64,000 bases of DNA from a virus, in the IMG/VR virus record IMGVR_UViG_3300028920_000068, positions 6,427-70,426 of that record. The stretch is one strand, 5' to 3'. A program made the position numbers and the translations under genes. A model generated the notes under the pieces. That model worked only from the letters and a program-made list of their open reading frames with translations, was not told the origin of the DNA and did not search any database. Of this stretch, positions 9,061-62,080 are shown in pieces (position 1 is the stretch's first letter; every line of letters begins with the position of its first letter).

Positions 9061-9074
9061 TGAAAGGATCAATA

Positions 9075-29518: not shown

Positions 29519-29776
29519 ATGAAAACTCGAGTCGTTCATTGCAAACGTGAACCCTATGATGTCTATATTGGCCGACCCTCTAAATGGGGCAACCCCTTTA
29601 TTATCGGCAAAGACGGGTCTCGAGAAGAAGTGATCCAGAAATATCGTACCTACCTTTTATCCCATCCAAATCTTCTAAAAGATCTTCTAAGTCTTAAAGG
29701 CAAGGTTTTAGGGTGCTGGTGTGCGCCAAAGCCCTGTCATGGTGATGTTTTAGTAGAAATCTTAGAATCTCTCTGA
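29519..29776 (+). CDS. DUF4326 domain protein
   Basis: YDVYIGRPSKWGNPF...LKGKVLGCWCAPKPCHGDVL. Confidence 0.9.
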   Translation: MKTRVVHCKREPYDVYIGRPSKWGNPFIIGKDGSREEVIQKYRTYLLSHPNLLKDLLSLKGKVLGCWCAPKPCHGDVLVEILESL

Positions 29777-38306: not shown

Positions 38307-40613
38307 TTATTTTAAAGCCTTTGTATTCATCTGATAAGCCCTTCGAACAGCGGCCTCAGAATTTCTCAAAGCTTTTTCAGATTTTTGATTACTCATTTCT
38401 GTTGCTTTTAAAAAGTTATTGGAAGCTCGTTCTACATCTGTAAAAATCTGAGTCATATCTGTCCCACCTTTTTCTAAAGCAGAAAAATCAACCTCTTGCA
38501 TACCAGAACCAAAATCCACAAAAGCTTTACCCATTTTTTCTACTTTATCTTTGGTTGGGCTCTCAGTACCTAAAAGCTTATCTAAAAATTTACCAAAAAT
38601 TCCCCCAGTTTCTACAGGTTTCGTTACTTCTGTCGGGGTTCTACCCTCTAATCTTTCGGCCACATTTTCAAAATTTTGTGCTGTAGGTAACGGAATACTC
38701 ATACCCAAACCTAAAGGAATTTTTTTAGGTACGCCAAGATTTTTAAACAAATCCGCTACTGCTCTTAAAATAGAGGGAAGTTCCTTAATAATACCGGAAA
38801 TCATAGCCTTAACCATAGCCCCGCCAACTAAAACCCCAATATTTTCCCACATTTTCGATTTAGCCCTAAAAACCGCCTCTAAAGCATCCGCAAAAATCTG
38901 AGCCAAAAATGTAAATGCCGGAGACAATTCTCTTAAAGCCGCACCTAAAGGCTCAACCAAAGCAGAAGCCAAAGATTTAATTAATGCCCGAAGTTTTTCT
39001 CCGACTGTTCCTTCAACTTCTTCTAAATTAACCTTAAGTTGACCCTTCTCTCCCGTTTCAAAGAAAGGAATAATTGCGGATTTACCCGGAGTAAACACAT
39101 CTTTAATCGCATCAGAAAAAGCATAACCCCAAACCTCTAACATACTCAAAATAGGACGAATTAATTCTACTACACCCATAAAAATTCTTTTAAAAGAATC
39201 TTTATTAGCTTTTATAGAACCAAAAATACTATCCAACACAGTCTGCACTGGCGCAATTAAAGGCTGAACCGCCTCAAACAGTCCATCTGCAATCTCGCCT
39301 AAAATTGCCATAGCCGTATTTTTAATTTTCATCCAGCCAACTAATACAGTCTCTAAAAATCTCGAATACATATCCGTAGTAATACTCTGACCCCTTTCTG
39401 AAGCCTGAATATAACCCTCAATAGAGCGTTTAAATTTATCAAACTTATCTACGTCTTTTAAAAGACGCATAATAGCCTCACCACCACGAATACCAAAAGC
39501 TCTACCAATAACCTCCGCCGGGGCCCTTTCCCCTATTTCTCTTAAAATTTCTGAAAATGGCTTTAATTTACCACCAGCTAAAGTAAACTGACGATAAACA
39601 TTATCCACACCCTCTTCTAGAGTACCTAAAGTTCCATTCACATCATCTAACTGCTCTTGTAAATTTTCAAATTCTTTTGTCCCTTCTTGTCCGGCAATAA
39701 CCATTTCAAATTGACGATTTTTTAATCGGTTTAATTCCTCTTCGGAATCAGCCATAGCCCTCTGACCTTTCATCAGAGTATCTAAAAATTTCTGTGATTC
39801 CGCATTAGCCCGGAATAAATTGACTCCATATTTAGTAAAAGCCGCCGTAGTTTTAGCTGTACCACCAAGTAATTTTTGAAAAGCCGCTCTTAATCGAGTC
39901 CCCGCCTTTTGTGACTGAATACCCGCATCATTCATAGTCATTAATGCTGCCGTCGTATCAACAATAGTTTCTCTGGTTTCACCAAAAGCCGTAGCCGCAA
40001 CAGAAGCCACTCTTTTCAAACCAGCAAATAAACCAGAAAGACTCACATTAGATTCTGTAACCGCCGTAGTTAAAGCATCAGCAAATACTGGAATTTCAGA
40101 AAGCTCCACACCAAAAGCCCGAGTAGTACCAATCAAATCATTTAGTGTAGTCTGAAACTCTTCACCATGAGCGGTAGCTAACTGCATAGCTGTTCCGGTA
40201 ATTGTTAAAGACTCCTGTAACTGTAACCCAGAACGTGCCGCCGTAATCATACCTTCCTGAATTTGCCTAGCCGTAAATCCAATCTGAGTGGACAAATCTC
40301 TGGACATAGTAAGAGCCTGTTCAAAAACAGAGGTAAATCCTATGCCACCTTTAGTAATAATTGCAGCGGTCTCAGTTGCCTTTAAACGAAGCTGTAAAAA
40401 TTCCGTCCCAAGTTTTCTAATAGTCGCCTGTAAATTTGTAATAATCTGCACACCGCTACGCAAAGCGGCAAAGAAACCAGCAACAACACCTGTACGAAAG
40501 ACCGCCCGTAAAGAAGACCTTAAAAGATTAAACCTTCTACTCAGAGAACCGACAGCCCGTTGTACTTGCTGTAATCCAATACGAATTCTTATATTTAATT
40601 TTTTCTCAGCCAT
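38307..40613 (-). CDS. Tail tape measure protein (TP901-type core)
   Basis: FTARQIQEGM..ARSG, LATAH, ADALT, AGIQSQKAGTRLR; long helical protein after the chaperones. Confidence 0.85.
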   Translation of the reverse strand: MAEKKLNIRIRIGLQQVQRAVGSLSRRFNLLRSSLRAVFRTGVVAGFFAALRSGVQIITNLQATIRKLGTEFLQLRLKATETAAIITKGGIGFTSVFEQALTMSRDLSTQIGFTARQIQEGMITAARSGLQLQESLTITGTAMQLATAHGEEFQTTLNDLIGTTRAFGVELSEIPVFADALTTAVTESNVSLSGLFAGLKRVASVAATAFGETRETIVDTTAALMTMNDAGIQSQKAGTRLRAAFQKLLGGTAKTTAAFTKYGVNLFRANAESQKFLDTLMKGQRAMADSEEELNRLKNRQFEMVIAGQEGTKEFENLQEQLDDVNGTLGTLEEGVDNVYRQFTLAGGKLKPFSEILREIGERAPAEVIGRAFGIRGGEAIMRLLKDVDKFDKFKRSIEGYIQASERGQSITTDMYSRFLETVLVGWMKIKNTAMAILGEIADGLFEAVQPLIAPVQTVLDSIFGSIKANKDSFKRIFMGVVELIRPILSMLEVWGYAFSDAIKDVFTPGKSAIIPFFETGEKGQLKVNLEEVEGTVGEKLRALIKSLASALVEPLGAALRELSPAFTFLAQIFADALEAVFRAKSKMWENIGVLVGGAMVKAMISGIIKELPSILRAVADLFKNLGVPKKIPLGLGMSIPLPTAQNFENVAERLEGRTPTEVTKPVETGGIFGKFLDKLLGTESPTKDKVEKMGKAFVDFGSGMQEVDFSALEKGGTDMTQIFTDVERASNNFLKATEMSNQKSEKALRNSEAAVRRAYQMNTKALK

Positions 40614-42344: not shown

Positions 42345-42689
42345 TTAATTCTCCAAATTTACTACTAATAATTCATAATGATGGCTTTGTCCCGCCGCAT
42401 CATCTACGGCCACCACTCGATATTTTTTACTTTCAAATTCTAAAATATCGTCCTCTTGAATATCAGCCGTAGGTTTCATAAAAACCATAAGTCGAGTATA
42501 TAATTTCTCACCTTTTCTGGTAAACTCAATGCTCTCATCATTCTGTTGAAATAAACAAGGTTCGGCACTGGTGACTAAAGCAATTGTCTCATCCGACGCA
42601 CCCCATTCATCTACCGAAGAGGTATCTAAATTTCTACGATAAATATCACAAGTCTGCGTTAATAAATTATTAAAAATAGGATCAGACAT
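42345..42689 (-). CDS. Head closure / head-tail adaptor protein
   Basis: DEWG...ADIQEDD...YRV..V.D.AG..HH.EL. Confidence 0.7.
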   Translation of the reverse strand: MSDPIFNNLLTQTCDIYRRNLDTSSVDEWGASDETIALVTSAEPCLFQQNDESIEFTRKGEKLYTRLMVFMKPTADIQEDDILEFESKKYRVVAVDDAAGQSHHYELLVVNLEN

Positions 42690-42823
42690 TAATCCGCTCC
42701 CCATTCTTCGTTACAAGCCTTACAAATATATTTATAACCCGTTTTTGTAGGAACCACATAAACCTTGCGTTTACCACATTTAGGGCATTTCTTATCCTGT
42801 ATATAATTACCTTCTTTAGCCAT
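42689..42823 (-). CDS. Small zinc-ribbon protein (44 aa)
   Basis: MAKEGNYIQDKKCPKC...CKAC; SD AAGGA; TAATG coupling to the next gene. Confidence 0.55.
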   Translation of the reverse strand: MAKEGNYIQDKKCPKCGKRKVYVVPTKTGYKYICKACNEEWGAD

Positions 42824-43431: not shown

Positions 43432-45846
43432 TTAAGGAGTCTCCCAATTCAACTCCTGTTGTTTAATCTCTATCTGTGATTTATAAATAGTATATTTTTC
43501 ACCATCAACATTTTCGATTTCTATTTCAATAAAAGATAATGGATTAAAATCAGTTGTCAAATCCGATGCTACCTGAATTAAAAACTTACCTTGTGACAAA
43601 ACAGTATTGGCTATTTGAGTTTCTGATCCGCCAGCGGCGGTATTACCTAATTTAATTTCCTCTCCATCATTATCAAAAATTTCACACCTAATTTTATAAC
43701 CAATTAAATCACCGCTTACGTCACAGGGAATATCCATAGCATCTCCCGCACTAATAGAATCCGGTAAAGTAACAGAAATTGTCAAATCCGATAATGGAGT
43801 CACACTCGTCATAACTAAGTTTACCTCAGTAGTCGCTATCTCTATCGTAACTGATTGAGATAAATCTACGAAGCCTGTTTTAGTAACCGTAGCTGTATGC
43901 GTCCCTATCAAATAAGTATAGGAATATGGGCTCGTCTGGCTAGAAGAATCTCCGCCATCTCCCGGCGTAAAAGTAGCCCCGGATAAATGGTTTCCATCAG
44001 AATCTTTAATATTAATAGTCACAGTTACTTGATTAACATTAACAACCATTGTATCTTCAGTGGCCGCATCATAGGAATCCGTAACCTTCAAATACAATGT
44101 TTTGTTTCCAGAATGAGTAGGTGTATAACTAAATGCCTGAACAGCTTCTAAAAGCGTAGAATAAACTCCTCGTGAAATTTCTGCATAAGCACCACCCTCT
44201 TCTTTCCATTCAGCTTTAACAATATTTGATTCCGCATCAGAAAATGTTGCGTCTGAAAAAGGATTCATAGCCACATTATAAACTACATTTTTATTTGTTC
44301 CTGCATATAATGTAGGAGCAGTATTAATAATATATCCAATTTCGTTTAAATCTAATTCAACTCTTTGAGTACCATCTGAAATAAATATAGCTTTAACATA
44401 AATTTTATCTTCATCGGCTGGAAAATCTCCAATATTATTATTAACAACTGTAACAGAATTATAATCTGAAGCTCCAGCACTTGCCCATGCAGACCCATTC
44501 CAATATTTCCAAGTTACCGCATCTTCTGATAATTGATAAACAATTGAACCTTCATTATTAATTCCTAAAGTTTCAGTAAAAGCTATCCATTCTTCTATAT
44601 TTGCAATCGAATCACCATCAGTTTTATATATTGTTGGTTTACTGGTAGGATAACCAGTGTCCATATATAAATTAGCAGTTAAAGTATCAACATAACTTTG
44701 TGTATTAGAATTATCAAAATGAATCTTAAATTGTCCATAAGTTTCGCCATCAACATCTAAATCATCAACATGGGCATTAAATGTAGCTTCATCATTAGCT
44801 TGTGCATAAGAGCCGTCAGAAGTAACCCAAGCACTTCCATTCCAATAAAGATAATTTCCACTTCGTCCAATTTGTAATGTATATCTAGGATTTCCTGATT
44901 CTACTGTAACAAAAGAATCAAAGGTTGTTAAATCTCCGGGTAAAGTGTGTTCCATTTCTGGAAGAATTACAGAGGATTCAACATAATCATATTCATAAAT
45001 ATTTGACCAATTAGAAGTATAATTAGAAGTATGTTGAACAGTTGAAAATACTAAAAAATCATTTATTTTAAAATCAGAATAGGTGCTACTTCCATTATCA
45101 TAATCACTTCCAATTCTTAATAATCCTATATTAGAATCTCTTAGACAGGTACTAACGCATGTAGAACCATTTTGCACACCATTTATAAATAATCTTGTTG
45201 CACCAGTAGTAAAATCCCAATTTACTTCAATTTCATATTCTGTTCCTGCAATTGGATTCCAAATTCCACAAAGATGCTCTACTACAAAATTTCCATCTTT
45301 ATCGTAAACATGAAGTCTTAAATAAGCCCCTGAATTTGAATGTCTTAATTCTATTGTGTTTTTTACATCATTATGAGCCTTGCATATAGCAAAAAACCAT
45401 CTATCTCCTGAAGGAGCGTTAGAGTAATTTGGTGTAACTTTAAATCGTATACACCCAACTTGTTGACTATCTGCATTTCCAACTGCATTATAATCAACAT
45501 ATCTTCTATCTAAATGAGCTAAATCTAATTTTCCACCACTAATTGAAGCTCCACCAATAGGAGTTCCGGTTAAAACTCCATTACCCCAATTACCATTTAT
45601 ATCAGAGTTATAACTAGCATAAAATGTAGCATTAGAGGGTCTTTTATCTTTCTGCTGTAATTTACCACCAGAAAACTCTGCTAAATCTGAATCATAAATA
45701 AAGCCTGTATCATCTGCAAAATCTTCGGTAAAAGATTGAAGACTGTTTTGTAATTTTAACCGGGCAATGCCGTTTACAATTTCAATTTTATCTGAATCAT
45801 AAGTATAATTTGCTGGTGTAGTATATGGTATTGAAAAATTCGGCAT
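43432..45846 (-). CDS. Large virion decoration protein (LamG-like, Ig/PKD-like, BppU-like domains)
   Basis: Repeated YWNGSAW motifs, LRIG, NTAPTLYAG...YLKVTDS Ig-like repeat. Confidence 0.6.
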   Translation of the reverse strand: MPNFSIPYTTPANYTYDSDKIEIVNGIARLKLQNSLQSFTEDFADDTGFIYDSDLAEFSGGKLQQKDKRPSNATFYASYNSDINGNWGNGVLTGTPIGGASISGGKLDLAHLDRRYVDYNAVGNADSQQVGCIRFKVTPNYSNAPSGDRWFFAICKAHNDVKNTIELRHSNSGAYLRLHVYDKDGNFVVEHLCGIWNPIAGTEYEIEVNWDFTTGATRLFINGVQNGSTCVSTCLRDSNIGLLRIGSDYDNGSSTYSDFKINDFLVFSTVQHTSNYTSNWSNIYEYDYVESSVILPEMEHTLPGDLTTFDSFVTVESGNPRYTLQIGRSGNYLYWNGSAWVTSDGSYAQANDEATFNAHVDDLDVDGETYGQFKIHFDNSNTQSYVDTLTANLYMDTGYPTSKPTIYKTDGDSIANIEEWIAFTETLGINNEGSIVYQLSEDAVTWKYWNGSAWASAGASDYNSVTVVNNNIGDFPADEDKIYVKAIFISDGTQRVELDLNEIGYIINTAPTLYAGTNKNVVYNVAMNPFSDATFSDAESNIVKAEWKEEGGAYAEISRGVYSTLLEAVQAFSYTPTHSGNKTLYLKVTDSYDAATEDTMVVNVNQVTVTINIKDSDGNHLSGATFTPGDGGDSSSQTSPYSYTYLIGTHTATVTKTGFVDLSQSVTIEIATTEVNLVMTSVTPLSDLTISVTLPDSISAGDAMDIPCDVSGDLIGYKIRCEIFDNDGEEIKLGNTAAGGSETQIANTVLSQGKFLIQVASDLTTDFNPLSFIEIEIENVDGEKYTIYKSQIEIKQQELNWETP

Positions 45847-46175
45847 TATTTATTCCTCCGGTCTAAATAGGGTCTTCGAGTTTTAATCAAAGAACCAAAA
45901 AATTTCTTCTGTGCCTCTTCATCAGCAGCAGGTTCAAATTTAATATATTTCCAATCGTGATCTTTTAACCACTTTTTCGCTTCAGCTACAGTAAACTTTT
46001 TAGAATTAAAACGAATAGACTGAACCTCAGTCACATCCTCTTCTTCTTTAATCCCATAAATAACATGAATACCATCACCGAATTCATTATTCTTTCTCCT
46101 AAAACGATCATATTGCCCGGGCTCTTTTATCCTCGCAGCGTGTTCATTTGGATATGGACGTTTATCTCTTCTCAT
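45846..46175 (-). CDS. Small head-associated domain protein
   Basis: PYPNEHAARI...EVQSIRF...AKKWLKDH, recalled as a domain of phage head proteins. Confidence 0.55.
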   Translation of the reverse strand: MRRDKRPYPNEHAARIKEPGQYDRFRRKNNEFGDGIHVIYGIKEEEDVTEVQSIRFNSKKFTVAEAKKWLKDHDWKYIKFEPAADEEAQKKFFGSLIKTRRPYLDRRNK

Positions 46176-46621
46176 TATTTCCTCCGATTCGAGATAATAT
46201 AAAATCTCCAGTCTTCATAAGGAACTGTCCTAAAAATTTCCGCTATTGTTTTCTTATCTTCTGGCAATGCTGTTAAATATTTTTCCGGCAAATAAAGCAT
46301 ACCAGCAAAAGTATATGATTTATTTGTGGTAATCTTTTCAACCTTAAAATTTGGGCCAAAGAAAACCGTACCAAAAGTCTTCACTTTACGAAGAACCATT
46401 AATGGCTTAGTCCGATCTTTGTTAATATAACCCAAGACCTTATCCTGATCTATATGAAAAAGGCTTGAATTTGAAATCACGATCAAATTTTCTTTATCTG
46501 GAATAATCCGAGATAAGTCAACCCGCTCTCCGAGATATTCACAATTCTCTAAGGCGGTTTTTAGGTAGGATATGATAACCTTATCTCCATAAGTATGCCT
46601 GCCATAAACATAAGTTTTCAT
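46175..46621 (-). CDS. Hypothetical protein, degenerate nucleotidyltransferase (GT-A)-like
   Basis: FGTV....KVEKIT...FAGMLY resembles the C-terminal half of NTP transferases. Confidence 0.35.
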   Translation of the reverse strand: MKTYVYGRHTYGDKVIISYLKTALENCEYLGERVDLSRIIPDKENLIVISNSSLFHIDQDKVLGYINKDRTKPLMVLRKVKTFGTVFFGPNFKVEKITTNKSYTFAGMLYLPEKYLTALPEDKKTIAEIFRTVPYEDWRFYIISNRRK

Positions 46622-46656
46622 TGTTCTACTCCTTTGTCAGCTTACATTACTCCTCT

Positions 46657-46691
46657 TATTAAATACAATTTTGCCCTAAAATATAATGTTT
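46657..46691 (-). promoter_or_regulatory. Putative phage late promoter
   Basis: AAACAT-N14-AAATTGTATTTAATA. Confidence 0.7.
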
Positions 46692-47545
46692 TAATATAAT
46701 ATAGACTCTAATTTACGCCAAAACATAAAATGAGCCTGCATAGTCATTTCTCTAAAAGTCTGATAATCCCATTCATAAGACATTGCTCCCACCCGCTCAT
46801 TTACCACTAATTTACACCCACATAAATAGGCTTCACCAACAGCACGACCAAAAGACTCATAATGACGAGGGATATGAATGAAATAACGGTATCTATTATA
46901 ATTCTCATAAATCTGCTCTTTAGGAACATAACCAATTAAATTACAATTCTTTAATATTTTTAGTTGATTATATAATCGACCATCATGCCGTTGATAGTAA
47001 AAATCAAAAATTAAATGCGGGTTTTCTTTCGCATATTGAATAATTTCCTCTACACCTTTTCCTGTATGAATATTTCCAACAAACATAATTTTATTTATCC
47101 GAGCTTGACCTTGGTCATAAAAAGTATAGGGAATATGGGGAGGAACCAAAAAAATATTCCTAGCATCAGTTAAAAATTTATTAAAACATTCTCTGTGTAA
47201 TGGAGATAAAAATATCGTCGCCACCGCTTTCTGCATCATCTCTGGCGTATCTTTTAAAACGCTCATCCATCTACCAGAATCGTGAGAATAAACTACATAA
47301 GGTTTTTCTGCTATCACCTTATCTCTAACAGGTTTAGTAAATTCATAACAATTACTAAAAATAATCAGATCACTTTCGGTCAATAAATTAGATCTCAAAC
47401 TACATGGTCTCGAAATTGTAATATCATAACCTAAAGCTCTACCTGCCTGAATCACATAAGAATCTGTAATTTCTGCTCCGCCTGCCGGAACCTCAATATT
47501 GGTGTAATCCGTAAGCCAAAGTACTTTCTTCTTTTTTAAACTCAT
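46691..47545 (-). CDS. Glycosyltransferase family 4 (GT-B)
   Basis: GGAE, FVGNIHTGKG, IGYVP, ESFGRAVGEAYLCGC. Confidence 0.85.
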   Translation of the reverse strand: MSLKKKKVLWLTDYTNIEVPAGGAEITDSYVIQAGRALGYDITISRPCSLRSNLLTESDLIIFSNCYEFTKPVRDKVIAEKPYVVYSHDSGRWMSVLKDTPEMMQKAVATIFLSPLHRECFNKFLTDARNIFLVPPHIPYTFYDQGQARINKIMFVGNIHTGKGVEEIIQYAKENPHLIFDFYYQRHDGRLYNQLKILKNCNLIGYVPKEQIYENYNRYRYFIHIPRHYESFGRAVGEAYLCGCKLVVNERVGAMSYEWDYQTFREMTMQAHFMFWRKLESILY

Positions 47546-48030
47546 GCTTTCTTCTCCAAAATAATCTTATGATTATATAATCCAATTTCAGGAAAATATT
47601 TTACAAGATCTAAATTTAATTTTTTCATCATTAATTTAAAAAATTCAGGAGTAAAACAAACACAATGAAAATTAGCCGAATATGTTTGGCCTCCAAAGAT
47701 TAATTGAGAAAATCTTTTAGATGAATCTCCATTATGATTTTTAATAATCTTATCCCTATCTTTATAAATTCGATCAATACTAGGAACCTGAATCTCAATC
47801 CTACCGCCCACTTTTAAGCAACGTATCCATTCAGCTAAAACATCCCAAACCTCAGAATGAGAAAAATGTTCTAATATATCATGGGCTAAAATATAATCCA
47901 CACTTCTAGTTTTAAATCTGGATAAATTAGATATATCCATACAAATATCTGGATTAATATCAGCACGAATATCTACATTAATAAAACCTTCTAATTTTTT
48001 CTCACCGCAGCCCAAATTTAATTTAAGCAT
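47542..48030 (-). CDS. Class I SAM-dependent methyltransferase
   Basis: KLNLGCG...FINVD, HDILEH, W.R.LKVGG.I.I.VP. Confidence 0.85.
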   Translation of the reverse strand: MLKLNLGCGEKKLEGFINVDIRADINPDICMDISNLSRFKTRSVDYILAHDILEHFSHSEVWDVLAEWIRCLKVGGRIEIQVPSIDRIYKDRDKIIKNHNGDSSKRFSQLIFGGQTYSANFHCVCFTPEFFKLMMKKLNLDLVKYFPEIGLYNHKIILEKKA

Positions 48031-48036
48031 AAAGCC

Positions 48037-48438
48037 TCATTTAAAGTATTTATTTCTTAATAAAGTAGAACTAATTCCTTTTGTTCTATTCAAATAAACC
48101 ACAGGTACCCCAAGCCCCTCACCAGTAAATGTTTCTGGTGTCCAATCATTTCCAACAAAAATAACATCTGGCCGATATTTTTCAACCAACTCTTTTTTAC
48201 CACAAGATAAACTTTGAACATCTACCATATCCACATATTTTAAAGCCTCAATCATTTCTTTACGGTATTGTAAAGGAATAGAAGCACTATGATGTTTCTT
48301 TGAAGCAATATATTCATCATCACTAATACAAATAATCAATCTATCACATTTAGATTTAGCCTGACGAATCAAATTCAAATGCCCGATGTGCCAGATTTCA
48401 TAGGCACCAAATGTAATTCCTATTTTATACTTTTTCAT
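48037..48438 (-). CDS. HIGH-family cytidylyl/adenylyltransferase (TagD / HldE domain II-like)
   Basis: TFGAYEIWHIGH, SDD, R..M..L.YVD.V, PDVIFVGNDW, RTKGISST. Confidence 0.85.
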   Translation of the reverse strand: MKKYKIGITFGAYEIWHIGHLNLIRQAKSKCDRLIICISDDEYIASKKHHSASIPLQYRKEMIEALKYVDMVDVQSLSCGKKELVEKYRPDVIFVGNDWTPETFTGEGLGVPVVYLNRTKGISSTLLRNKYFK

Positions 48439-49126
48439 GGCAATATTCCGGTAACATTTTTTTAATTAATTGAATTTCATTTTGATTCTCATAATAATGA
48501 TGCCATAAAATAGATTTTTCCTTCGGCAAAGGAGCATATTTAGGTTGTGTTGGATAATTTTTTATATTAAACCCGGCCCATTTTACCGCCTCTAATTTAA
48601 TCTTCTCATCTAATAAAAAATCCTCAAAATGAATAATCTTTATACAATCCTTATTCTTTTTCAAATTTTTCAAATGATTATCAAAAGTTCTTCTTTGATC
48701 TAAATATTCTTGAATAAATTGTGTTACCTGAATATTTCTACCGTGCTTTAAACAAAGCTGTCTTCTCCTTAACCAAGTCGATCTTGGGTCTCTTAGAATA
48801 CAAAAAACTTTAATATTATCCAATAATTCAATCCCCGGTAGAGTTAAACAAGTCACTACATTATTTAACAACAATACCGAGCCAGTTAATTTATCACCAA
48901 ATCTTTTTTCTGCCTCTTTGTGAATCTGTTGATTTAAAAGTTTTTTATAATAATCAGAATTATTAAAACTTTCTCGCCGCCATTTTAAATATAAATCCTT
49001 CCGCCATACCTGTGGTAATTCACTAACCAAAGCACAAGTCTTTTTAAAGCAACGAAAATAATCAAAAAGTGCAGATGATCCAGAAGAGGTTGTTCCGGCA
49101 AATAAAAGTTTTCTTTTAATATTCAT
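48425..49126 (-). CDS. Sulfotransferase-like P-loop protein
   Basis: AGTTSSGSSAL (5'-PSB-like), ILRDPRS (3'-PB), IHFEDF. Confidence 0.7.
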   Translation of the reverse strand: MNIKRKLLFAGTTSSGSSALFDYFRCFKKTCALVSELPQVWRKDLYLKWRRESFNNSDYYKKLLNQQIHKEAEKRFGDKLTGSVLLLNNVVTCLTLPGIELLDNIKVFCILRDPRSTWLRRRQLCLKHGRNIQVTQFIQEYLDQRRTFDNHLKNLKKNKDCIKIIHFEDFLLDEKIKLEAVKWAGFNIKNYPTQPKYAPLPKEKSILWHHYYENQNEIQLIKKMLPEYCHEKV

Positions 49127-49129
49127 AAA

Positions 49130-49663
49130 TTATTCCACCCTTAACCATGCCAAAGAAGTATTTTTAATTACATTAGGCTTTATATTCATTTTATTTAAAG
49201 CCTGAGTAACTTCAATATTATGATATTGACTATCTTTATTATAATCATGCCAAATAATAATTCCTCCGGGATTAATTAAACGGTACGCAATTTTTGTATC
49301 ATTAATTACAAAAGATTCTTTATGGTTTGCATCCACCAAAATTAAATCAAATCCAATTAAACCGTGACCAACAAAATCAAATATACGGGTGTCTCCCTGT
49401 AAAAACTTTATTTTTGAATATTCTGGAAGATTCACTAATTCTGGCTTATCTAAAACTTTAATATCTACCGAAACTAACTTGGCATCTGATGGGCTAAACT
49501 TAGCCATATTAATAGTTGTCCTACCATATTTAGTTCCAATTTCTAAAATTCTTTTAGGTTTTATTTGTCTAACCAATCGACATAATTGAATCAATTCTAT
49601 AATACTCATTCCAGATTTTTTATTAGAAAATAAAATCAAATCTTCTTTTATAATTGGTTTCAC
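49130..49663 (-). CDS. Class I SAM methyltransferase (Methyltransf_24-like O-methyltransferase)
   Basis: ILEIGTKYGRT, SVD, FDLILVDANH, PGGIIIWHDY. Confidence 0.85.
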   Translation of the reverse strand: MKPIIKEDLILFSNKKSGMSIIELIQLCRLVRQIKPKRILEIGTKYGRTTINMAKFSPSDAKLVSVDIKVLDKPELVNLPEYSKIKFLQGDTRIFDFVGHGLIGFDLILVDANHKESFVINDTKIAYRLINPGGIIIWHDYNKDSQYHNIEVTQALNKMNIKPNVIKNTSLAWLRVE

Positions 49664-49825
49664 AATAACCCCCTAAAATATATTGAAAATATACACCTCT
49701 GGTTTAATATTGTAACTCGAATAAAATATGCTTTTTCATAATAAGTACTAAACTTTCCACAAGCCAAGCCGATAAATCTCAAAGTCTTATAAAGATGGTC
49801 GCAAAATAAATTCTCATATTCGAAA

Positions 49826-52207
49826 TCAAGTCTCATTTTTTAATTCCCGTAATATATTAGAATACACCCGGTATACCGTAATCCGATCCATATTCTTACA
49901 AGTCTGATACCCTAATTTACATTTACTACTCCAACCATGTACTGTCCACCAACAAGAAGGACAGACCCCTTGATAAATATTTATATTATCTGGATACCCA
50001 TATAACTTTGGTGTTGTGGGGCCAAATAAAACAACACCTTTTGTCCCTACAGCATGTGCCAAATGAACCAAACCACCCTCATTACTAATGTGTAATAAAC
50101 TTCTATTTAAAACATACATTAAATCAATAATATTATCACACCGTAAATACCTTGCCCCTTTTAATTCTATGTCATATTTACCGCCCAATTGAATAATCTC
50201 ATAACCCCGCTTCTTCAATCTTTCAATTAGGCTCTCCCATTTATATTCCGGCCAAAGTTTCAAAATACCAACATTTTGGTCACAACCAGAACTCAGGGTA
50301 ATATATTGATCCGGTAACTTATATTTATTTTTTAAACCACTAAATAAACCTGCCCGATCTACCATAGGAATTTCTAAATCTGAATCAATTAAATCTAAAT
50401 CAGTTTTCTCAGCATAATAACGAAAAGTCTGGCTATTCCAATTATCTAAAATATATCCTGTGGATTTTTGCCAATTATTATATAATTCAGAATTAAATTC
50501 TTGATTTAAAGATTCATCAAAATTATACCATACATAAGGATAGGGACGAAACTCATAAATAATATCATAATCATTTTTAATCTTATCAAAAGTCCTACGC
50601 CAATTCTGAGTAGAATACTGCGCCTTAATATAAGGATAATCAAAAATAAAGACTTGTACTTGTTGAAGATCTCTTACAAAAGCATCTACTTGACTCCCTG
50701 GCCATTTACGCCTAATTGCTCGACATAAATAATTCAACATAACCGCATCTCCAAGACCACCCATCCAAAATGCGGCAATTTTTTTAGTAGGTATTTTTCT
50801 TACAGAAATAACTTTCCCCGGAAGCTTATCTTCACTAATAATTTCAGGTAATTTGACCTCTGAATTTTTAATAACCGAAATAGTTTCTTTTTCTTGTCTC
50901 TCTCGAGTCATAAAAAATTCTCCCACATCCTTATATAACTGCTCCCAATTATGATAAGTATAACAAGATTTATTATGACATTGCCATTCTTTCGAAGAAA
51001 CAAACTGTTTACTTACACAGGGATAACAAGAAACCTTTGGCGTATATGGAACACAATTTTTATAAGTGCTACACCGCCATTCAGGTTTAAAATAATTCAT
51101 TAAACAAAAAGTTTTCTTATTAAATGCTCCGGCAATATGTAAAAAAGAAGTATCAACCGTTACCACACAATCCATCATAGCGATTAACGAAAACAATTCC
51201 CTCACTGTCGTCTTTTTATTCAAATCAATACAATTCTGAAAACTATGTCGCCTAACCGAGGCCACAAAAATGGTATATCCCCGAGCCTTAAAACGATTAA
51301 TTACATCTTGAGTTAAATTATTTGGTAATTTAGAATCTATCCGTGCACTATCATAACCTAAAAAAATCTTCTTCTGATAAGGGCCCCATTTCCTCTGTGC
51401 ATTATTCTTTTCATCTGCTGTTAAAATAATCTCCGGGCGATCTATTACTAAATCTGCGGGTTGTAGACCGCATAATTCAGCTACCGAATAAATTCTATTT
51501 TGCTTATTAAAATCTTGACGATAATCATTCAAGAGTTGTCCAAAATTTAGATAAATTACTTTAGGAAATTTTGAAATATCTACTTCATGCCTTTTAGAAT
51601 AAATACCTCTAATATAAGACAAATTTTGAAAACAGGGATTCCGATGAGCATCACATAAAACATAAACCCGTTTTCCCTTCTCAGCTAAAGTTTTTAAAGA
51701 AGGTATAGTTAATAAATGATCTCCCACCCCACCAAAAATTTCAACCAATACATTATTCTTATTATTATCAAAATCATCCGATAATTTTTTTACATCACGT
51801 TCTTTACGAATAATAGGAATATAATATTTAGTAAATGCAGAAAAAGCCTCAGCTAAACGAATCGCAGATCGAGAACCGTAAACTGAGGCAAACATTAAAG
51901 GATTAAAAAAGATTGTATGTAAAAACCATTTATCAGGAGTTTCAATATAATAAATATGCTGGTCATGGATAGGTTCAGATGGCATCTTATTACAAACATA
52001 AATAATACCAAGATCTTTTTTTAATGCAGATCTAATTAAAGCGGGAATCCTAGAGCCCTCGCTAACATGATTAACGAAAGCCACAATCAAAGACTTTCCC
52101 TGTGGTCTTGGAATTACATAATTTTTTTGTTTTTGAAAATCACCTGTGATAGGATTAGGAATATAGGTAAGAAGTTCATCTGATATGAGGCGAATCGAGG
52201 ATGCCAT
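49826..52207 (-). CDS. Double-domain glycosyltransferase family 9 (ADP-heptose-type heptosyltransferase)
   Basis: Two GT9 units: GGVGDHL...VDTSFLHIAGAF...CYPC and GGLGDAV...KLWP...NEGGLVHLAHAVG...VLFGPT...CPSCW. Confidence 0.85.
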   Translation of the reverse strand: MASSIRLISDELLTYIPNPITGDFQKQKNYVIPRPQGKSLIVAFVNHVSEGSRIPALIRSALKKDLGIIYVCNKMPSEPIHDQHIYYIETPDKWFLHTIFFNPLMFASVYGSRSAIRLAEAFSAFTKYYIPIIRKERDVKKLSDDFDNNKNNVLVEIFGGVGDHLLTIPSLKTLAEKGKRVYVLCDAHRNPCFQNLSYIRGIYSKRHEVDISKFPKVIYLNFGQLLNDYRQDFNKQNRIYSVAELCGLQPADLVIDRPEIILTADEKNNAQRKWGPYQKKIFLGYDSARIDSKLPNNLTQDVINRFKARGYTIFVASVRRHSFQNCIDLNKKTTVRELFSLIAMMDCVVTVDTSFLHIAGAFNKKTFCLMNYFKPEWRCSTYKNCVPYTPKVSCYPCVSKQFVSSKEWQCHNKSCYTYHNWEQLYKDVGEFFMTRERQEKETISVIKNSEVKLPEIISEDKLPGKVISVRKIPTKKIAAFWMGGLGDAVMLNYLCRAIRRKWPGSQVDAFVRDLQQVQVFIFDYPYIKAQYSTQNWRRTFDKIKNDYDIIYEFRPYPYVWYNFDESLNQEFNSELYNNWQKSTGYILDNWNSQTFRYYAEKTDLDLIDSDLEIPMVDRAGLFSGLKNKYKLPDQYITLSSGCDQNVGILKLWPEYKWESLIERLKKRGYEIIQLGGKYDIELKGARYLRCDNIIDLMYVLNRSLLHISNEGGLVHLAHAVGTKGVVLFGPTTPKLYGYPDNINIYQGVCPSCWWTVHGWSSKCKLGYQTCKNMDRITVYRVYSNILRELKNET

Positions 52208-52247: not shown

Positions 52248-52280
52248 AAAAAGTAGGCCCTGATTTTGGCTCAGGGCCTA
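52248..52280 (-). terminator. Intrinsic terminator after the major capsid gene
   Basis: TAGGCCCTGA-GCCAAAA-TCAGGGCCTA followed by CTTTTT on the - strand. Confidence 0.8.
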
Positions 52281-52310: not shown

Positions 52311-53249
52311 TTAGGAACTAGCTTTCTGAATGGTGATTAAACCTTCAGACTTATTGCTGCCGTTAATATAGGCCCACACGAAGTCGAACCAATATGTCAC
52401 GACGAGCAAATCAGCCCGACGACCAGCCTTATGTTCCACATCCACTTCGATATTTCCGTAATATCCAGCGAAAGCACCCTTCATATTCGCCAAGATAGCT
52501 TTCTCGCCCGTAACTTGCAGTCTACGAACCAGCGGAATACCATGTATATGAACCACCCGTTTCAGACCCAGTGCCGGAACATCGTCGATGTCATAACCGA
52601 CCATGTTCTTGTCAGCAGACTTCTTGGCAGCCGTAACGAAATCGGCAGAACCCAAAAGCACTGTATCTTCCACGTCTTCCTCAGATCCATAAACACCAAG
52701 GTCATTCTGGGCTTCCGCCACAGCATCCAAGATATTCTGGGAATTAGAGGTTGTGTACTCTACCGGGGAGTTGGCGGCGTTAGCCGAATTAGCCAACTTC
52801 ACGATACCGTCTGCGATAGTGAGAGGATTAGTCGCACCAATAGCAGTTGTGTCACCCGTAAGGGCGATCTTATCAGCCGTGCGAGCAATAGCCCGGCTAA
52901 TTTTGTTACGGAACAACTGATTCAGCTTAAGCTCAGGATACTGGGCCACCTGCTTTTTCTTCAGGTAGATATAAGTACCCAATTCGACAGGTTCCAAATC
53001 AGGCGATTTGATGTCGAAGCTCATTTCAGTCAACGTGGTAATATCAGCCGTATTATCAATCCGATAAACCTTATCCAGATCCTCTTCACCGATAACCGGG
53101 ATAGTTCCCTCGTTCACGATTTCGATCAGTTGATCCCGAGAATCGACCATCCGAAGAATCAAAGACTTTTCGATGGCATCTTCAACAATTTTATCCACCA
53201 ATTCTTTAGGCAGATTGGTTGCTGATCCAGCAGGAATTACGAAATCCAT
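52311..53249 (-). CDS. Major capsid protein (HK97 fold)
   Basis: LPKELVDKI, ISRAIARTADKIALTGD, IHGIPL; follows the prohead protease; higher-GC codon usage and a strong SD. Confidence 0.85.
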   Translation of the reverse strand: MDFVIPAGSATNLPKELVDKIVEDAIEKSLILRMVDSRDQLIEIVNEGTIPVIGEEDLDKVYRIDNTADITTLTEMSFDIKSPDLEPVELGTYIYLKKKQVAQYPELKLNQLFRNKISRAIARTADKIALTGDTTAIGATNPLTIADGIVKLANSANAANSPVEYTTSNSQNILDAVAEAQNDLGVYGSEEDVEDTVLLGSADFVTAAKKSADKNMVGYDIDDVPALGLKRVVHIHGIPLVRRLQVTGEKAILANMKGAFAGYYGNIEVDVEHKAGRRADLLVVTYWFDFVWAYINGSNKSEGLITIQKASS

Positions 53250-53304: not shown

Positions 53305-54597
53305 TTAAACACTCAAAAAATCACTAAAGAATGTTTCAGGATTCTGGCCCGGTTTTCTCTTTTGGGCTGCCTCCCGAATTTTATCTATGTTATCAACATC
53401 GAGACTTTTCTTGATGTCTTCCAAGACCTGATTAAGTTTATCCAACTCATTGATCTTTTCCGCCATCTTAGCCACTCTCTCCGACAATTCCTGATTTCTC
53501 TGAGTGAGTTCATCGACTTTTTGTTCAAGAGCCTGTTTATCGTCTGTTTGCTCTTCGGACTCAATATCGGTGTTCTCAGCGACGGTCTCAGAGTCCTCGG
53601 TTTCATCTTCCGTTGACTCATTAGATTCGGTACTCTCCTCCATAGCCTCTTCAGTTTGCTCGGCCTCTTCACCATCCGTCTCTTCGGCCTCTACATTATC
53701 TTCAGCAGACTCTTCTGGAGAAATCTCATCTTCCTCTGAAGTTTCTTCTGCGGCTTCCTCGGTTTCCTCTTCGGACGATTCGGTTTCTTCTGTATTTTCT
53801 GTTTCTTCAGTCGATTCCTCTTCAGCCGTAGTCTCTTCCGTATTTTCCTCAGTGTCTTCTTCAGAAATATTAGAATCAGTAGCCTCTTCTTGAGACTCAC
53901 TGTTTTCATCTTCTGTTTGCTCTTCGGAAGTTTCCTCATCCCGTTTAAGAGCTTCCCGAATATCCAATTTTTCAGCAGATTTTTCATCCACTAAACCACG
54001 AACAACCAATTCCCGTTTAAACGCATCAGCTTTATCAGCGTTTAACGCTTCAGGATTTCCGGGCACTGGAACTGCCGAATACTCAAACAATTCCCATTTA
54101 TAAATAAGATACAGACCCCATCCACCAGCATCTTTAATCTGCTCAGAAGTAATATTCAAACCATACTTCTTATTAAGGTCTTCCCTATTTTCCTCATCAA
54201 ACCGTTTATACTTCAACGGCATAAAACCAATTGACCACGCATGTAAAAAACCATCCTTATAAGCATTAAAAACTTTTACCGCCAAAGGATCATTTTTATT
54301 AAATTCAGTTGTGGCTACAATTTCTTCCTCACGAATATCCAGATCAACGCATCTTCCGATAGGAATTTTAGGTGTAGCTTCGTCCATATTATGCGACCAT
54401 AAAACCACCGCATTATTAAGGAAATGAGTTGCATCCACACCTTGAGGTAAAACCACAGTCCCATGACGATCCAATACCTTAGTATTAATAGTATGGGTAA
54501 TCCTATAATTTTCCTCATCCACACTACGAATGGATGTTCGGAGAAAGCCATGTCTTTTTTCACTTAAATTCATAAAATTTTCCTCCTTAAATTCCAT
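53305..54597 (-). CDS. HK97-type prohead protease with acidic linker and scaffold-like C-terminus
   Basis: LDRHGTVV, VLWSHN, PIGR, GFLHAWSIGF, ELFEYSAVPVPGNPEA; Glu/Thr/Ser-rich tract then coiled coil. Confidence 0.9.
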   Translation of the reverse strand: MEFKEENFMNLSEKRHGFLRTSIRSVDEENYRITHTINTKVLDRHGTVVLPQGVDATHFLNNAVVLWSHNMDEATPKIPIGRCVDLDIREEEIVATTEFNKNDPLAVKVFNAYKDGFLHAWSIGFMPLKYKRFDEENREDLNKKYGLNITSEQIKDAGGWGLYLIYKWELFEYSAVPVPGNPEALNADKADAFKRELVVRGLVDEKSAEKLDIREALKRDEETSEEQTEDENSESQEEATDSNISEEDTEENTEETTAEEESTEETENTEETESSEEETEEAAEETSEEDEISPEESAEDNVEAEETDGEEAEQTEEAMEESTESNESTEDETEDSETVAENTDIESEEQTDDKQALEQKVDELTQRNQELSERVAKMAEKINELDKLNQVLEDIKKSLDVDNIDKIREAAQKRKPGQNPETFFSDFLSV

Positions 54598-54601
54598 CGT
54601 A

Positions 54602-54988
54602 TTAAGTATCAGACTGTTTACTCAAAATAACCCGGGCCTTAACCACATCACCCTGTCTTGACGTTACCGTATACTGCACAACCACACAATTCGTATAAGT
54701 AGCTGCCGGAATTCCGCCACCACGATAACCAGCCAAAAGCTGAACCGTAACGGCTGTACCATTCTGAGCAATCGTATCAATTGCATAGGTACTATCAGCC
54801 TTATACTCTGCACAGTCAACCGTAATTGTCAACTCAGAATTACCATGAGCAACAAAAATCGGATACTGTCTATCGGCTGCAAAGTGCTTGATCGGGTTGA
54901 AATCATAATCAACTTCGATACCTTCACAGTTGGCGATTTCTTTTGATCCAACCAAAATCCGACCAACATTAGCTTTTAAATCAGCCAT
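54602..54988 (-). CDS. Putative tail tube (major tail) protein
   Basis: Beta-rich 128 aa with capsid-like higher-GC codon usage and SD GGAGG; no other tube candidate near the TMP. Confidence 0.5.
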   Translation of the reverse strand: MADLKANVGRILVGSKEIANCEGIEVDYDFNPIKHFAADRQYPIFVAHGNSELTITVDCAEYKADSTYAIDTIAQNGTAVTVQLLAGYRGGGIPAATYTNCVVVQYTVTSRQGDVVKARVILSKQSDT

Positions 54989-55164: not shown

Positions 55165-56928
55165 TTAATTAACCCCTAATATTGCAGTCGCAACGATTTT
55201 CATTAATTTTTCGTTTGCTGTTACATATTTATAACGAAAATCCGTATCTGAAGGTTGAGCAGAAACATCTACAGTAGCAATTAATGTTTTCTCATTTCCT
55301 TCAAATACTGCACCATATTCTAATGTAGCTTGAGTCCAAGTTGTTCCATCATCTCTTGAAACATATAAAAGCAAATCAGTATTCAAAGTAATAACATCAA
55401 TATCTTCTTCAATACAAACAATTCTAGCTCGATCAAAAACAGAATTTAAAGAAAGAGTTTCAGAAACTAAAGTCATGTTTTCATTATCACCAGAATATTC
55501 TACTGTTGGAGCAGTAAAGTTAGCTGTATGACGAGCAATTCCTTTAGAAATTCGAATTTCATCTAGCCATCCCGGAAAATCATTTGCACCACCTGTACCA
55601 CCAATATTCAAATCCGCATCAGGATTAGCCATACTTCCAGTAGCAGATTGTTGTAATGTTAATTCTGTTCCATCAAGAAAAAATCTAAAAGTTCCAGAAC
55701 ATCTATTAACTTCTAAATGATACCATCGTTCAGTATCTAAAGAAGCAAGACCTGAAATAACAGATTGAGATAAAGAATTTGATGCTATCTGAAATGCACT
55801 ACTTGTATATAGTAATTGCCAATATGTTCCACCAGTTAAACAAGACATAAGATAATTACTCGATAATCCACTACTCAATCTAAATTGAAAATCAATCGTA
55901 AAATCGCCTGAACCAAATTGCCAATCAGAACGAGTTCCACTTGCTGTTATATAATCACTATCACCATCAACAATTAATGAAGCAGAACCAAATTTTTTCT
56001 GTGCTGTATCTAATTCAGCTTGACCAGAAAAACCAATAGTATGTTCAGAAGCAGATACATCCGTTGTTGAAGTAGCTCCATCAACACCGTTTAAATGGAG
56101 CATAAGTTTTGTGTATTCATCATAACCCGAAACTGGTGTATAATAATCATCGACTGAATTATAAGTTTGATTTTCAGATTCACCAGCATCAATACCAGAT
56201 TGATCTATATACCCATCAATCCAACCATTAATAATTCCAGAAATCGTTAAAGTATTTTTAATCGTAGTGCGAACTAAAGTAACTAATTGATTAAAAACAT
56301 TAATTCTTATTTCATTTGCAGAAACTTCATCATTACCACCATCATCCAATTTAGAATCTGTATCTTGCGTATGTTTTTTATCTATACTATCTTCTAAATT
56401 AGATTCAGTAATTTTTGTCGTTGCACGAACACTATCACCAACAGAACTTGGTACAGATAATCCAGTCAATTTGTGACTGTTCATATCTACATTAGATTCC
56501 ATCTGCCCCAAAGATTGATCTGTTCCCTGTATATGTTTTTTATCAACAGCATCTTTTACATCAGCAACATTAACTTCATTTGCTCCACCTTCATCAAGTT
56601 TTTGATCTGTTCCTTGAGTATGTTTTTTTGTTACCGCATCATCAATATCATCCACAGCAGAGGTCGGTTTACCAGAAATAGCCGCCCAAACCACATCAAT
56701 AATATCTCCATTATCATCCCAGTCAGATAAATCACCAGAAATCTCGTCAGAAGTCCAAATATAAAGATGTCCATTATCCGCTGAAATCCTAGCATCACCT
56801 TTTGCATTACCAGATAAAGGCAAAGCCGCTTGAGAGGCCACACCTGCTTTAATAGATACAATAGATCCATTAAAAACTTGCTGTAATAATCCGGTAAATT
56901 TATTGACTTTTGTTTTATAAAAACTCAT
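55165..56928 (-). CDS. Virion fibre/decoration protein with KKHxQxTD repeats and a LamG-like domain
   Basis: Three DA(V/I)xKKHxQxTD repeats; TKLMLHLNG...DTAQKKFG...GWLDEIRISKG. Confidence 0.7.
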   Translation of the reverse strand: MSFYKTKVNKFTGLLQQVFNGSIVSIKAGVASQAALPLSGNAKGDARISADNGHLYIWTSDEISGDLSDWDDNGDIIDVVWAAISGKPTSAVDDIDDAVTKKHTQGTDQKLDEGGANEVNVADVKDAVDKKHIQGTDQSLGQMESNVDMNSHKLTGLSVPSSVGDSVRATTKITESNLEDSIDKKHTQDTDSKLDDGGNDEVSANEIRINVFNQLVTLVRTTIKNTLTISGIINGWIDGYIDQSGIDAGESENQTYNSVDDYYTPVSGYDEYTKLMLHLNGVDGATSTTDVSASEHTIGFSGQAELDTAQKKFGSASLIVDGDSDYITASGTRSDWQFGSGDFTIDFQFRLSSGLSSNYLMSCLTGGTYWQLLYTSSAFQIASNSLSQSVISGLASLDTERWYHLEVNRCSGTFRFFLDGTELTLQQSATGSMANPDADLNIGGTGGANDFPGWLDEIRISKGIARHTANFTAPTVEYSGDNENMTLVSETLSLNSVFDRARIVCIEEDIDVITLNTDLLLYVSRDDGTTWTQATLEYGAVFEGNEKTLIATVDVSAQPSDTDFRYKYVTANEKLMKIVATAILGVN

Positions 56929-61150: not shown

Positions 61151-62080
61151 ATGAAAAACTCGGATATTTATCAAACTATTACGGACAGGATTATTCAAGG
61201 ATTACAAAAGGGGCGTATTCCGTGGCGGAAGACTTGGAAAGCCGCAACAGGTATGCCAAAGAATTTTATTAACAAAAGACCTTATAGGGGCGCAAACATT
61301 TTAGTACTTTGGTTTCACATGATGGCCTATGGATTCAGCCAGCCTTATTATTTAACATTTAAACAAGTAAATAAATTAGGCGGCAAGGTTAAAAAAGGCT
61401 CTAAGTCGGAATTGGTGATATACTGGCAATGGCTAGAGCGGGAAACCGGGGAGCGCAAAAAAGACGGATCAGCAAAGGTCAAACGAATTCCATTGTTAAG
61501 ATATTATCGAGTATTTAATATTGAACAAACAGAAGGTATCGAATACGAAAAGCCAGAAGATAAACAGATGCCGGAATTTAAGCAGATCGAAGCGGCGGAA
61601 AATTTTGTCAAAAATTATCAGGACAGGCCGCCTATTCAGCACGGCGGAGGCCGGGCTTGTTATAGTCCGACAGATGATAAAATTCAGATGCCGAAACCGG
61701 AAACTTTTGAATCTGAACCCGCCTATTATGGCACGTTATTTCACGAATTAACGCATAGTACGGGCCACAAGTACAGACTCAATCGGGATGATGGGATGGC
61801 GGGATTTTTCGGGGATGAAAATTACAGCCGGGAAGAATTAACCGCAGAAATCGGCACGGCTTTTATATGCGCCTTAACCGGGATCAGTAACGAAAAACTT
61901 GAAGAAAATCAGCAGGCATATATAAATAACTGGATTAGTAAATTAGAATCTGATCCAAAAATGGTTATACTTGCCAGTGCCCGGGCGCAAAAGGCCGTTG
62001 ATTATATGCGAGGGATTACACACGATCAGAAAACCGCCGAAGAGTCCGAAGAGCGGGACACCGCCGGGGCTTCAGCGTAA
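61151..62080 (+). CDS. ardC: ArdC-family antirestriction protein (ssDNA-binding domain + zincin metalloprotease)
   Basis: IYQTITDRII..L..G..PWRKTW, YRGAN, YLTFKQ...GG.VKKG, VFNIEQ, ACYSP..D.I.MP, FHELTH, YSREEL.AE. Confidence 0.92.
   Translation: MKNSDIYQTITDRIIQGLQKGRIPWRKTWKAATGMPKNFINKRPYRGANILVLWFHMMAYGFSQPYYLTFKQVNKLGGKVKKGSKSELVIYWQWLERETGERKKDGSAKVKRIPLLRYYRVFNIEQTEGIEYEKPEDKQMPEFKQIEAAENFVKNYQDRPPIQHGGGRACYSPTDDKIQMPKPETFESEPAYYGTLFHELTHSTGHKYRLNRDDGMAGFFGDENYSREELTAEIGTAFICALTGISNEKLEENQQAYINNWISKLESDPKMVILASARAQKAVDYMRGITHDQKTAEESEERDTAGASA

Follow-up and report, generated by a model that had tools for sequence, protein, structure and literature searches.

A GT9 glycosyltransferase island behind the capsid gene of an uncultured phage as a candidate system for virion glycosylation

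The stretch of DNA analysed here in full, referred to as the window, is 64 kb long (64,000 nucleotides, positions 6,427 to 70,426 of IMG/VR virus record IMGVR_UViG_3300028920_000068, a linear record of 70,426 bases that is 77% complete according to CheckV), and its late operon carries an island of glycan-related genes directly behind the major capsid gene. A sequence-only reading of the window had placed such a cassette at this locus, and its genes were recovered at the coordinates given there, all on the minus strand. The operon begins with p128, a 128-residue protein of predicted tail-tube fold (54602–54988), followed by the prohead protease/scaffold (53305–54597; phrog_80, 1.8e-21) and the major capsid protein (52311–53249; Phage_capsid, 27.7 bits against a cut-off of 24.2). 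The island itself opens with a double GT9 enzyme of 793 residues (49826–52207; GT9, 75.4 bits over two stretches), and continues with a sugar O-methyltransferase-like protein of 177 residues (49130–49663; Methyltransf_24 48.7 bits, Methyltransf_3 31.7, CmcI 29.2, with the O-methyltransferase and CmcI models also over their cut-offs), the 233-residue P-loop/sulfotransferase-like p233, whose family is unconfirmed (48425–49126), a TagD-like cytidylyltransferase of 133 residues (48037–48438; CTP_transf_like 61.3 bits, with HxGH and RTKGISST motifs), a second methyltransferase (47542–48030; Methyltransf_11 30.2 bits) and a GT4-type transferase of 284 residues (46691–47545; Glycos_transf_1 34.7 bits, cut-off 26.4). 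The last gene of the island encodes p148, a protein of 148 residues (46175–46621) that lay inside the range of the earlier reading and was left unnamed by it. Beyond p148 the operon runs on, also on the minus strand, through p109, an 804-residue lectin-fold protein, p193 and the head-tail adaptor (42345–42704).

The overall G+C content is 34.9%; the island, at 29–33%, is richer in A+T than its surroundings, the capsid gene having 44% G+C. Between the capsid stop and the GT9 start lies a terminator-like hairpin on the minus strand (52254–52280; a 10-bp stem with six G-C pairs and a T run), which is a consensus match only, such sites being no more numerous in the region than in shuffled sequence. 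For a 58-codon open reading frame at 49660–49836, the related genomes hold no homologue; it is probably not a gene.

The 793-residue enzyme is composed of an N-terminal domain (residues 1–145), a first GT9 unit (146–445), a linker and a second GT9 unit (471–793), and the earlier description of two tandem GT9 units, each ending near a four-cysteine (Cys4) cluster, has been borne out. When each unit was scanned alone against PF01075 (cut-off 22 bits), the scores were 29.9 bits for unit 1 and 49.9 bits for unit 2; residues 1–145 match no family, and a profile of this domain found nothing among PDB sequences. The G-D catalytic motif is present and invariant in both units (D163 and D487). The nucleotide-sugar D/E..H motif is formed in unit 1 by D352 and H357, which align with the DSGxxH motif of WaaF, and in unit 2 by E710 and H715, which, together with K650, align with D261, H266 and K192 of WaaC. 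For the HepI residues Asp13, Lys192, Asp261 and His266, whose roles are described in the available portion of bioRxiv 10.1101/2021.06.16.448588, the equivalent of Asp13 is kept in both units and the equivalents of the other three are found in unit 2.

The four cysteines are C394, C397, C410 and C415 in unit 1 (CxxC-x12-C-x4-C), and C749, C752, C763 and C770 in unit 2 (CxxC-x10-C-x6-C); they are invariant in the unit alignments, and hhalign places one cluster on the other (E 7.3e-5). In two relatives, the unit-1 motif is split by a 364-residue intein at the exact junction of P396 and C397 (L003:8997-12491 and L011:10001-14284), and the L011 enzyme additionally carries a C-terminal GT2 fusion, reaching 1427 residues.

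The enzyme has 41 homologues, many of them on contigs of 60–96 kb. Among 185,579 species genomes, only two distant matches to the family were detected, both at 22% identity and neither offering a clue to the host; the family is phage-specific, absent from cellular genomes and prophages. Among 50,697 cultured phage records, tblastn of the source terminase and the GT9 enzyme found nothing close; the 793-residue enzyme matches 11 of these records, none of which is among the 19 that match the heptose kinase discussed below. Unit 1 is the best-conserved part of the enzyme across the relatives (48–78% identity), and unit 2 is exchanged in L010 and L012 (20–21% identity) and missing in L014. A profile of the N-terminal domain found 40 cluster representatives among 1.84 billion proteins, in each of which it matches at the N-terminus, at residues 1–145. 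GT9 was detected in 24 of the 29 matches that were scanned; of the remaining five, two are fragments and the other three gave no GT9 match, one of them being probably a spurious hit. The single-unit forms retain the G-D motif and all four cysteines.

The position of the enzyme is conserved. In 16 of 16 related viral loci, the capsid gene has a GT9 match directly downstream, apart from one endonuclease-like reading frame inserted between the two genes in L013 and L016, so that the cassette's tie to the capsid gene, proposed from the window as a phage-owned arrangement, holds across the relatives in gene order. In a sister lineage, scanned with a five-sequence alignment, a single-unit enzyme again lies directly after the capsid gene in four of four loci (L171–L174), and the capsid protein of this lineage is only 26–30% identical to that of the window. 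In L182, GT9 genes are located on both sides of the p128–protease–capsid block.

At its other end, the island is closed by p148 in all 12 related loci that extend that far. The p148 protein is confined to the clade and matches neither Pfam nor PDB sequences; its ESM Atlas model resembles NTP_transferase clusters at TM 0.70–0.71, and it possibly adopts a small sugar-phosphate-nucleotidyltransferase-like fold. The genes between these two ends vary from locus to locus, and judged from the alignments the island would consist of a fixed core, formed by the N-terminal domain and unit 1 of the enzyme together with p148, and an exchangeable part reaching from unit 2 to p148. The cassette is smallest in L006, in which only the methyltransferase (Methyltransf_11 being kept) and a GT4-type gene remain, and an O-methyltransferase-like gene is present in L003, L004 and L005. 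The islands of L007, L013, L015 and L016 add a second cytidylyltransferase, a short-chain dehydrogenase and LicD; those of L010 and L011 hold an FkbM methyltransferase and a pyruvyl transferase; and that of L012 holds a TagF-like enzyme, a nucleotidyltransferase fused to GNAT and an aminotransferase. Besides a p233/cytidylyltransferase pair, L002 encodes a small nucleotidyltransferase-like reading frame, an APS kinase (5.6e-59) and a true Sulfotransfer_1 protein (L002:11094-12983). The island of L014 (L014:9956-19664) encodes a cytidylyltransferase–PEP mutase fusion, a TPP enzyme, an Fe-alcohol dehydrogenase and GT2 enzymes, and by these families it is predicted to be a phosphonate-decoration set behind the capsid gene.

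The proteins encoded just upstream of the island are the candidate acceptors. The p128 protein is 89–98% identical across the relatives, a much higher conservation than that of the capsid protein (64–94%) or the polymerase (49–75%), and none of its 58 homologues is annotated. Its gene lies upstream of the protease and capsid genes, outside the tail module. The AlphaFold model of p128 (pLDDT 73) gave three Foldseek matches at E up to 1e-3, with phage 812 at 4e-5 and also tube proteins of Sf11, monocin, lambda gpV and R4C, and nearly all of the top 50 matches are tail-tube, tube-initiator or Hcp chains (TMq 0.52–0.56). The sister-lineage homologue of p128 (hhalign probability 98%) is encoded at the position of a tail-tube gene, before two chaperone-sized reading frames. 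Modelling thus assigns p128 a tail-tube fold, and if it is the tail tube, the island, with the capsid gene likewise upstream of it, follows the genes of what would be the two most abundant virion proteins.

Among the cassette proteins, no clear membrane helix was detected, and no flippase, polymerase or ligase families were found among the scanned cassette genes of the relatives; that no export machinery was seen fits assembly on a cytoplasmic acceptor. The content of the island would suit any acceptor in the cytoplasm, be it a phage protein from outside the virion, a host protein, or a glycoconjugate that stays free or is secreted, but such an acceptor is improbable, as it leaves unexplained both the position after the capsid gene and the position beside the tail-tube gene in L182. 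Two large Laminin_G_3 lectin-fold proteins, of 804 and 587 residues, flank the head genes on the minus strand (43432–45846 and 55165–56928); they may serve as fibres of the head or neck and may carry or bind glycan. The 804-residue one (43432–45846) is strain-specific, having no homologue in four related genomes.

The island had also been linked to a remote kinase gene, and the product of this gene is a good relative of HldE domain I, a probable standalone heptose kinase (24465–25418, plus strand): it matches TIGR02198 (rfaE_dom_I) over positions 4–312 of 315 with 330.6 bits, just below the curated cut-off of 345, and the kinases of the relatives score 309–329 bits. It is preceded by a winged-helix gene (24186–24455) that co-occurs with it. 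Of 16 related records, 5 carry the kinase, among them three of the four that are at least 90% complete.

The best reading of the island, to which we give roughly an even chance, is the glycosylation of a virion protein, started by unit 1 of the GT9 enzyme. Transcription of the island would fall in the late phase, together with that of the virion genes and at a lower level, and unit 1 would transfer the first heptose from ADP-heptose, the donor suggested by the enzyme family and by kinase co-occurrence, to a phage structural protein in the cytoplasm. Unit 2 and the GT4-type enzyme would then extend the glycan, and the two methyltransferases and the p233/TagD-like pair would add strain-specific decorations, such as methyl groups, a CDP-activated phospho-alcohol or sulfate. 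The HldA-like kinase would raise the supply of heptose-1,7-bisphosphate; the isomerase, the phosphatase and the adenylyltransferase would have to come from the host. What the sequences show are the family memberships, the catalytic motifs, the gene order, the variability of the island and the co-occurrence of kinases with GT9 genes; which sugar is donated, what receives it, when this happens and in which order the steps run are inferred.

Two known systems resemble this arrangement. In mycobacteriophages (Che8 and others), as proposed for the island, the phage brings glycosyltransferases and methyltransferases of its own that are believed to modify the particle, and the proteins targeted there are of the same two kinds as those encoded just upstream of the island here: the available portion of PMC12619734, citing Freeman 2023, gives the capsid and tail-tube subunits as the glycosylated proteins. 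In contrast to the mycobacteriophage systems, the window encodes GT9 units with an N-terminal domain of their own and heptose is the likely sugar, the source phage is no relative of the actinophages (best terminase match 26% identical), and the island is hypervariable, wedged into the head operon, and known from its genes alone. The second system is that of the bacterial protein heptosyltransferases TibC and AAH (4RAP, 4RB4), for which the consulted part of PMC4358343 describes the cytoplasmic O-heptosylation of protein with ADP-heptose. These carry an extra N-terminal domain, a GT-B core of GT9 type and a Cys4 knuckle near the end of the C-lobe, in which the iron of TibC is held by Cys339, Cys342, Cys358 and Cys370 in a C-lobe insertion (PMC4358343, same part). 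The phage enzyme likewise has an extra N-terminal domain, GT9 units and Cys4 clusters at that position. It differs from TibC in its cysteine spacing and in the fusion of two units, and resembles it only marginally in sequence (E 0.002, one profile).

Several observations weigh against virion glycosylation. A virion protein is favoured as the acceptor, and the capsid protein and p128 are suggested as the best candidates, because of gene order only. When the enzyme was compared with TibC and with WaaC and WaaF, a check proposed with the sequence-only reading, both units came out nearer to the lipopolysaccharide (LPS) enzyme WaaF, insofar as profile similarity can tell: WaaF is the best match of the whole-protein profile (E 1.2e-15, against 0.002 for TibC, which is matched by this profile only and as far as the CxxC), the unit-1 profile matches WaaF at 0.0096 and TibC not at all, and the unit-2 profile matches WaaF at 2.3e-8 and TibC not at E up to 1. 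The Cys4 cluster, which had been taken as a marker of TibC-type protein transferases, does not serve as one. It occurs at the same position in 16 of 21 GT9 reading frames of kinase-bearing phages, but also in 3 of the 10 GT9 reading frames of two bacterial genomes, one of them canonical (132.6 bits), and is not specific to protein transferases. More distant phage GT9 genes are found beside baseplate genes (L199), beside fibre-like genes (L177) and after the terminase (L185, L210), but also after DnaB (L019) and among recombination genes (L018), and the link to virion modules is therefore common, not universal. Finally, two GT9 units followed by a GT4-type enzyme echo the order HepI, HepII, GlcI in which the LPS inner core is assembled.

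This order, and the standing of WaaC (HepI, 2GT1/2H1H) and WaaF (HepII, 1PSW) as the closest solved relatives, sharing the catalytic Asp, the Lys and the D/E..H motif, favour a remodelling of the host envelope, in which an LPS inner-core-like glycan would be built during infection on lipid A–Kdo or another precursor and could block superinfection or stop progeny from sticking to debris. Heptose-pathway genes of the cyanophage P-SSM2 were taken by its authors, in the consulted part of PMC1079782, as LPS genes that change the host surface. We regard envelope remodelling as unlikely but deserving of weight. The enzyme family is restricted to phages, and the late-operon site beside the capsid gene recurs in two lineages whose capsid proteins share 26–30% identity. 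What sets the phage enzyme apart from WaaC and WaaF is its N-terminal domain, its Cys4 clusters, the fusion of two units in tandem and the place of its gene in the head operon; the N-terminal domain and the Cys4 clusters lie outside the stretches aligned to E. coli WaaC and WaaF, and these alignments end before the cluster. No integrase was found among the genes of the source phage, and LPS made late would presumably reach the surface of a lysing cell only marginally.

For virion glycosylation, further difficulties concern the supply of the donor. A complete relative, G005, keeps the island and has no kinase, and no GmhA-type isomerase, GmhB-type phosphatase or true HldC was found in the clade. 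The absence of gmhA from the window, noted earlier, holds for the whole 70,426-base record, which gave no SIS_2 match, and neither SIS_2 nor a gmhB-type HAD protein was matched in five relatives, four of which are at least 95% complete; ADP-heptose would therefore depend on the host. In four kinase-bearing relatives (G004, G008, G009 and G010), the kinase adjoins a cupin of the D-lyxose/D-mannose isomerase family (Pfam 21.8–30.8 bits, cut-off 20.8; 7.6e-6 against PDB 2Y0O), which may be a non-orthologous stand-in for GmhA and which is absent from this genome and from the kinase-less G005. The cupin genes stand beside the winged-helix and kinase genes at L022:3066-3509, L021:3014-3457, L023:614-1042 and L026:198-629.

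Heptose kinases of this type are common in viral contigs, in which 574 of 599 candidate stretches were confirmed by a kinase-alignment search; as a single query, the kinase gave no match. When 41 further viral records with such a kinase, each at least 40 kb long, were searched, GT9 was present in 23, which counts in favour of a heptose supply for the enzyme. This figure is weakened in that two of the 41 records are fragments of this same clade, several others are near-duplicates, and the only rough comparator, in place of a formal base rate of GT9 in viral records, is the 11 of 50,697 cultured phage records matched by the enzyme. The corresponding numbers are 11 of 41 for SIS_2 (GmhA type) and 24 of 41 for rfaE_dom_II (78–206 bits), and among the eight records that are at least 90% complete, GT9 is found in seven, SIS_2 in five and rfaE_dom_II in six. 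The expected association of kinase and GT9 is thus visible in the census, but fails in the complete G005, which has the island without the kinase. In one of these records (G035; L155:1934-5755), a 1273-residue reading frame ends in a GT9 unit with Cys4 and is directly followed by the gene of an rfaE_dom_II-type adenylyltransferase.

A phage-borne kinase of the HldE-domain-I type, 26–31% identical to that of the window, is also known from cyanomyoviruses (P-SSM2 PSSM2_309-311; P-SSM5, S-CAM3 and P-TIM68), where it forms one cluster with an isomerase and a true adenylyltransferase, whereas the kinase of the window stands alone and far from the island. In P-SSM2 (NC_006883.2, L140), a sub-threshold GT9 match of 16.2 bits comes from the hypothetical protein PSSM2_307 (235282–236394), whose gene is located close to one for a tail fibre and two genes ahead of the heptose-pathway cluster.

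In the sequence-only reading, the island's nucleotidyltransferase had been assigned the second ADP-heptose step, so that it and the kinase would jointly supply ADP-heptose to the GT9 enzyme. This full pathway is now quite improbable, the protein being TagD-like and not HldC. The NCBIfam model of TagD scores 77.3 bits (cut-off 165.4) and that of rfaE_dom_II (TIGR02199) 65.1 bits (cut-off 181.5), and the domain model TIGR00125 is over its cut-off (54.5 bits against 27.7). The solved TagD structures 2B7L and 1COZ give a full-length alignment at E 2e-21 in which HxGH and RTxGIS can be seen, whereas the HldE-II-like chain 3glv reaches 7.6e-5. The protein lies below the TagD equivalog cut-off, and no teichoic-acid context surrounds its gene. 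Its score also falls below the range of the phage rfaE_dom_II genes in kinase-bearing records. Its best PHROG, phrog_7878, named bifunctional heptose kinase/adenylyltransferase (95 bits), counts against the TagD assignment and for the full pathway; the pathway is also favoured by the rfaE_dom_II match and by other phages in which kinase, true HldC and GT9 do occur together, as the census and G035 illustrate. Gene content speaks for the opposite: p233 adjoins a cytidylyltransferase-like gene in nine of the nine cassettes that hold p233, and both genes are missing from six GT9-bearing loci and from the kinase-bearing G008, G009 and G010. The nucleotidyltransferase travels with p233, not with the kinase or the GT9 enzyme.

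The description of p233 as sulfotransferase-like has fared unevenly. One language-model comparison agrees with it (ESM look-alike at 0.97, with 24 of 30 matches in sulfotransferase clusters), but hidden Markov models lend no support: p233 matches nothing in Pfam, PHROG or NCBIfam, an eight-sequence profile found nothing in PDB, and hhalign against a true sulfotransferase aligned only an N-terminal loop, at a probability of 1.2%. The case for sulfation in the window is a weak one.

The transferases might instead place heptose-type glycans on the bases of phage DNA. Phage clusters with a cytidylyltransferase and GT-B enzymes put mono- and di-heptose on 5-hydroxymethylcytosine, according to the available portion of bioRxiv 10.1101/2023.12.21.572611, in which GT9 is not among the DNA transferases described. 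Elsewhere, the source phage encodes PF18909, PF05014 and radical SAM proteins, and relative G004 encodes a C5 cytosine methylase. A thymidylate-synthase-like hydroxymethylase was not found in any of five genomes, and no Tet/JBP match was obtained, a weak negative since the control matched nowhere either. The island is situated in the late virion operon, away from the replication genes, and DNA hypermodification by these enzymes is very improbable. Genes for nucleotide metabolism are present in the early region (1006–1515, 2332–2823, 27198–27692, 29519–29776 and 63023–63727), encoding a nucleoside 2-deoxyribosyltransferase-like protein, a dATP/dGTP diphosphohydrolase N-domain, DUF5662, DUF4326 and, at the contig end, a radical SAM protein; they hint at a modified DNA base.

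Extending the preferred reading, virion glycosylation, beyond this genome, it may be that phages O-heptosylate their capsid and tail-tube proteins by means of a widespread class of GT9 enzymes, which in this genome are fused in tandem behind a targeting domain of their own, and that the swappable cassette sets a strain-specific virion "serotype"; we offer this tentatively and rate it somewhat short of an even chance. Serotype groups would then be methyl, sulfate, pyruvate, phospho-alcohol or phosphonate, making the island an O-antigen-like diversity locus for virus particles, and this would be the first protein heptosylation outside bacterial autotransporters. To our knowledge, glycosylation of its own particle by a phage has been shown only for mycobacteriophages, in which it changes immune recognition. 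If the proposal is correct, particle glycosylation would extend to environmental phages of other hosts, heptose and unusual decorations would join the chemistry of virions, and the finding would suggest that particle surfaces face the diversifying pressure that acts on the surface glycans of bacteria, with relevance to adsorption, aggregation, grazing and phage therapy. A full-text literature search, which leaves subscription journals mostly outside, found no paper that ties GT9 or heptose to phage particles.

The source phage looks like an uncultured, marine, lytic-looking siphovirus of about 92 kb at full length, its complete relatives measuring 86–93 kb. The closest terminase match by tblastn in the cultured phage records is that already given for the comparison with actinophages, and blastn of the island against the same 50,697 records gave no match. 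The genome further encodes a portal protein (18379–19602), a tape measure protein (38307–40613), a RecA-like protein, a primase-helicase and a DNA polymerase A. Two tRNA genes, Asn(GTT) at 20149–20223 and Tyr(GTA) at 26345–26432, lie on the plus strand, and an ArdC-like anti-restriction protein, an MgtC-family protein and an M16 peptidase are encoded at 61151–62080, 3735–4190 and 9027–10226, respectively.

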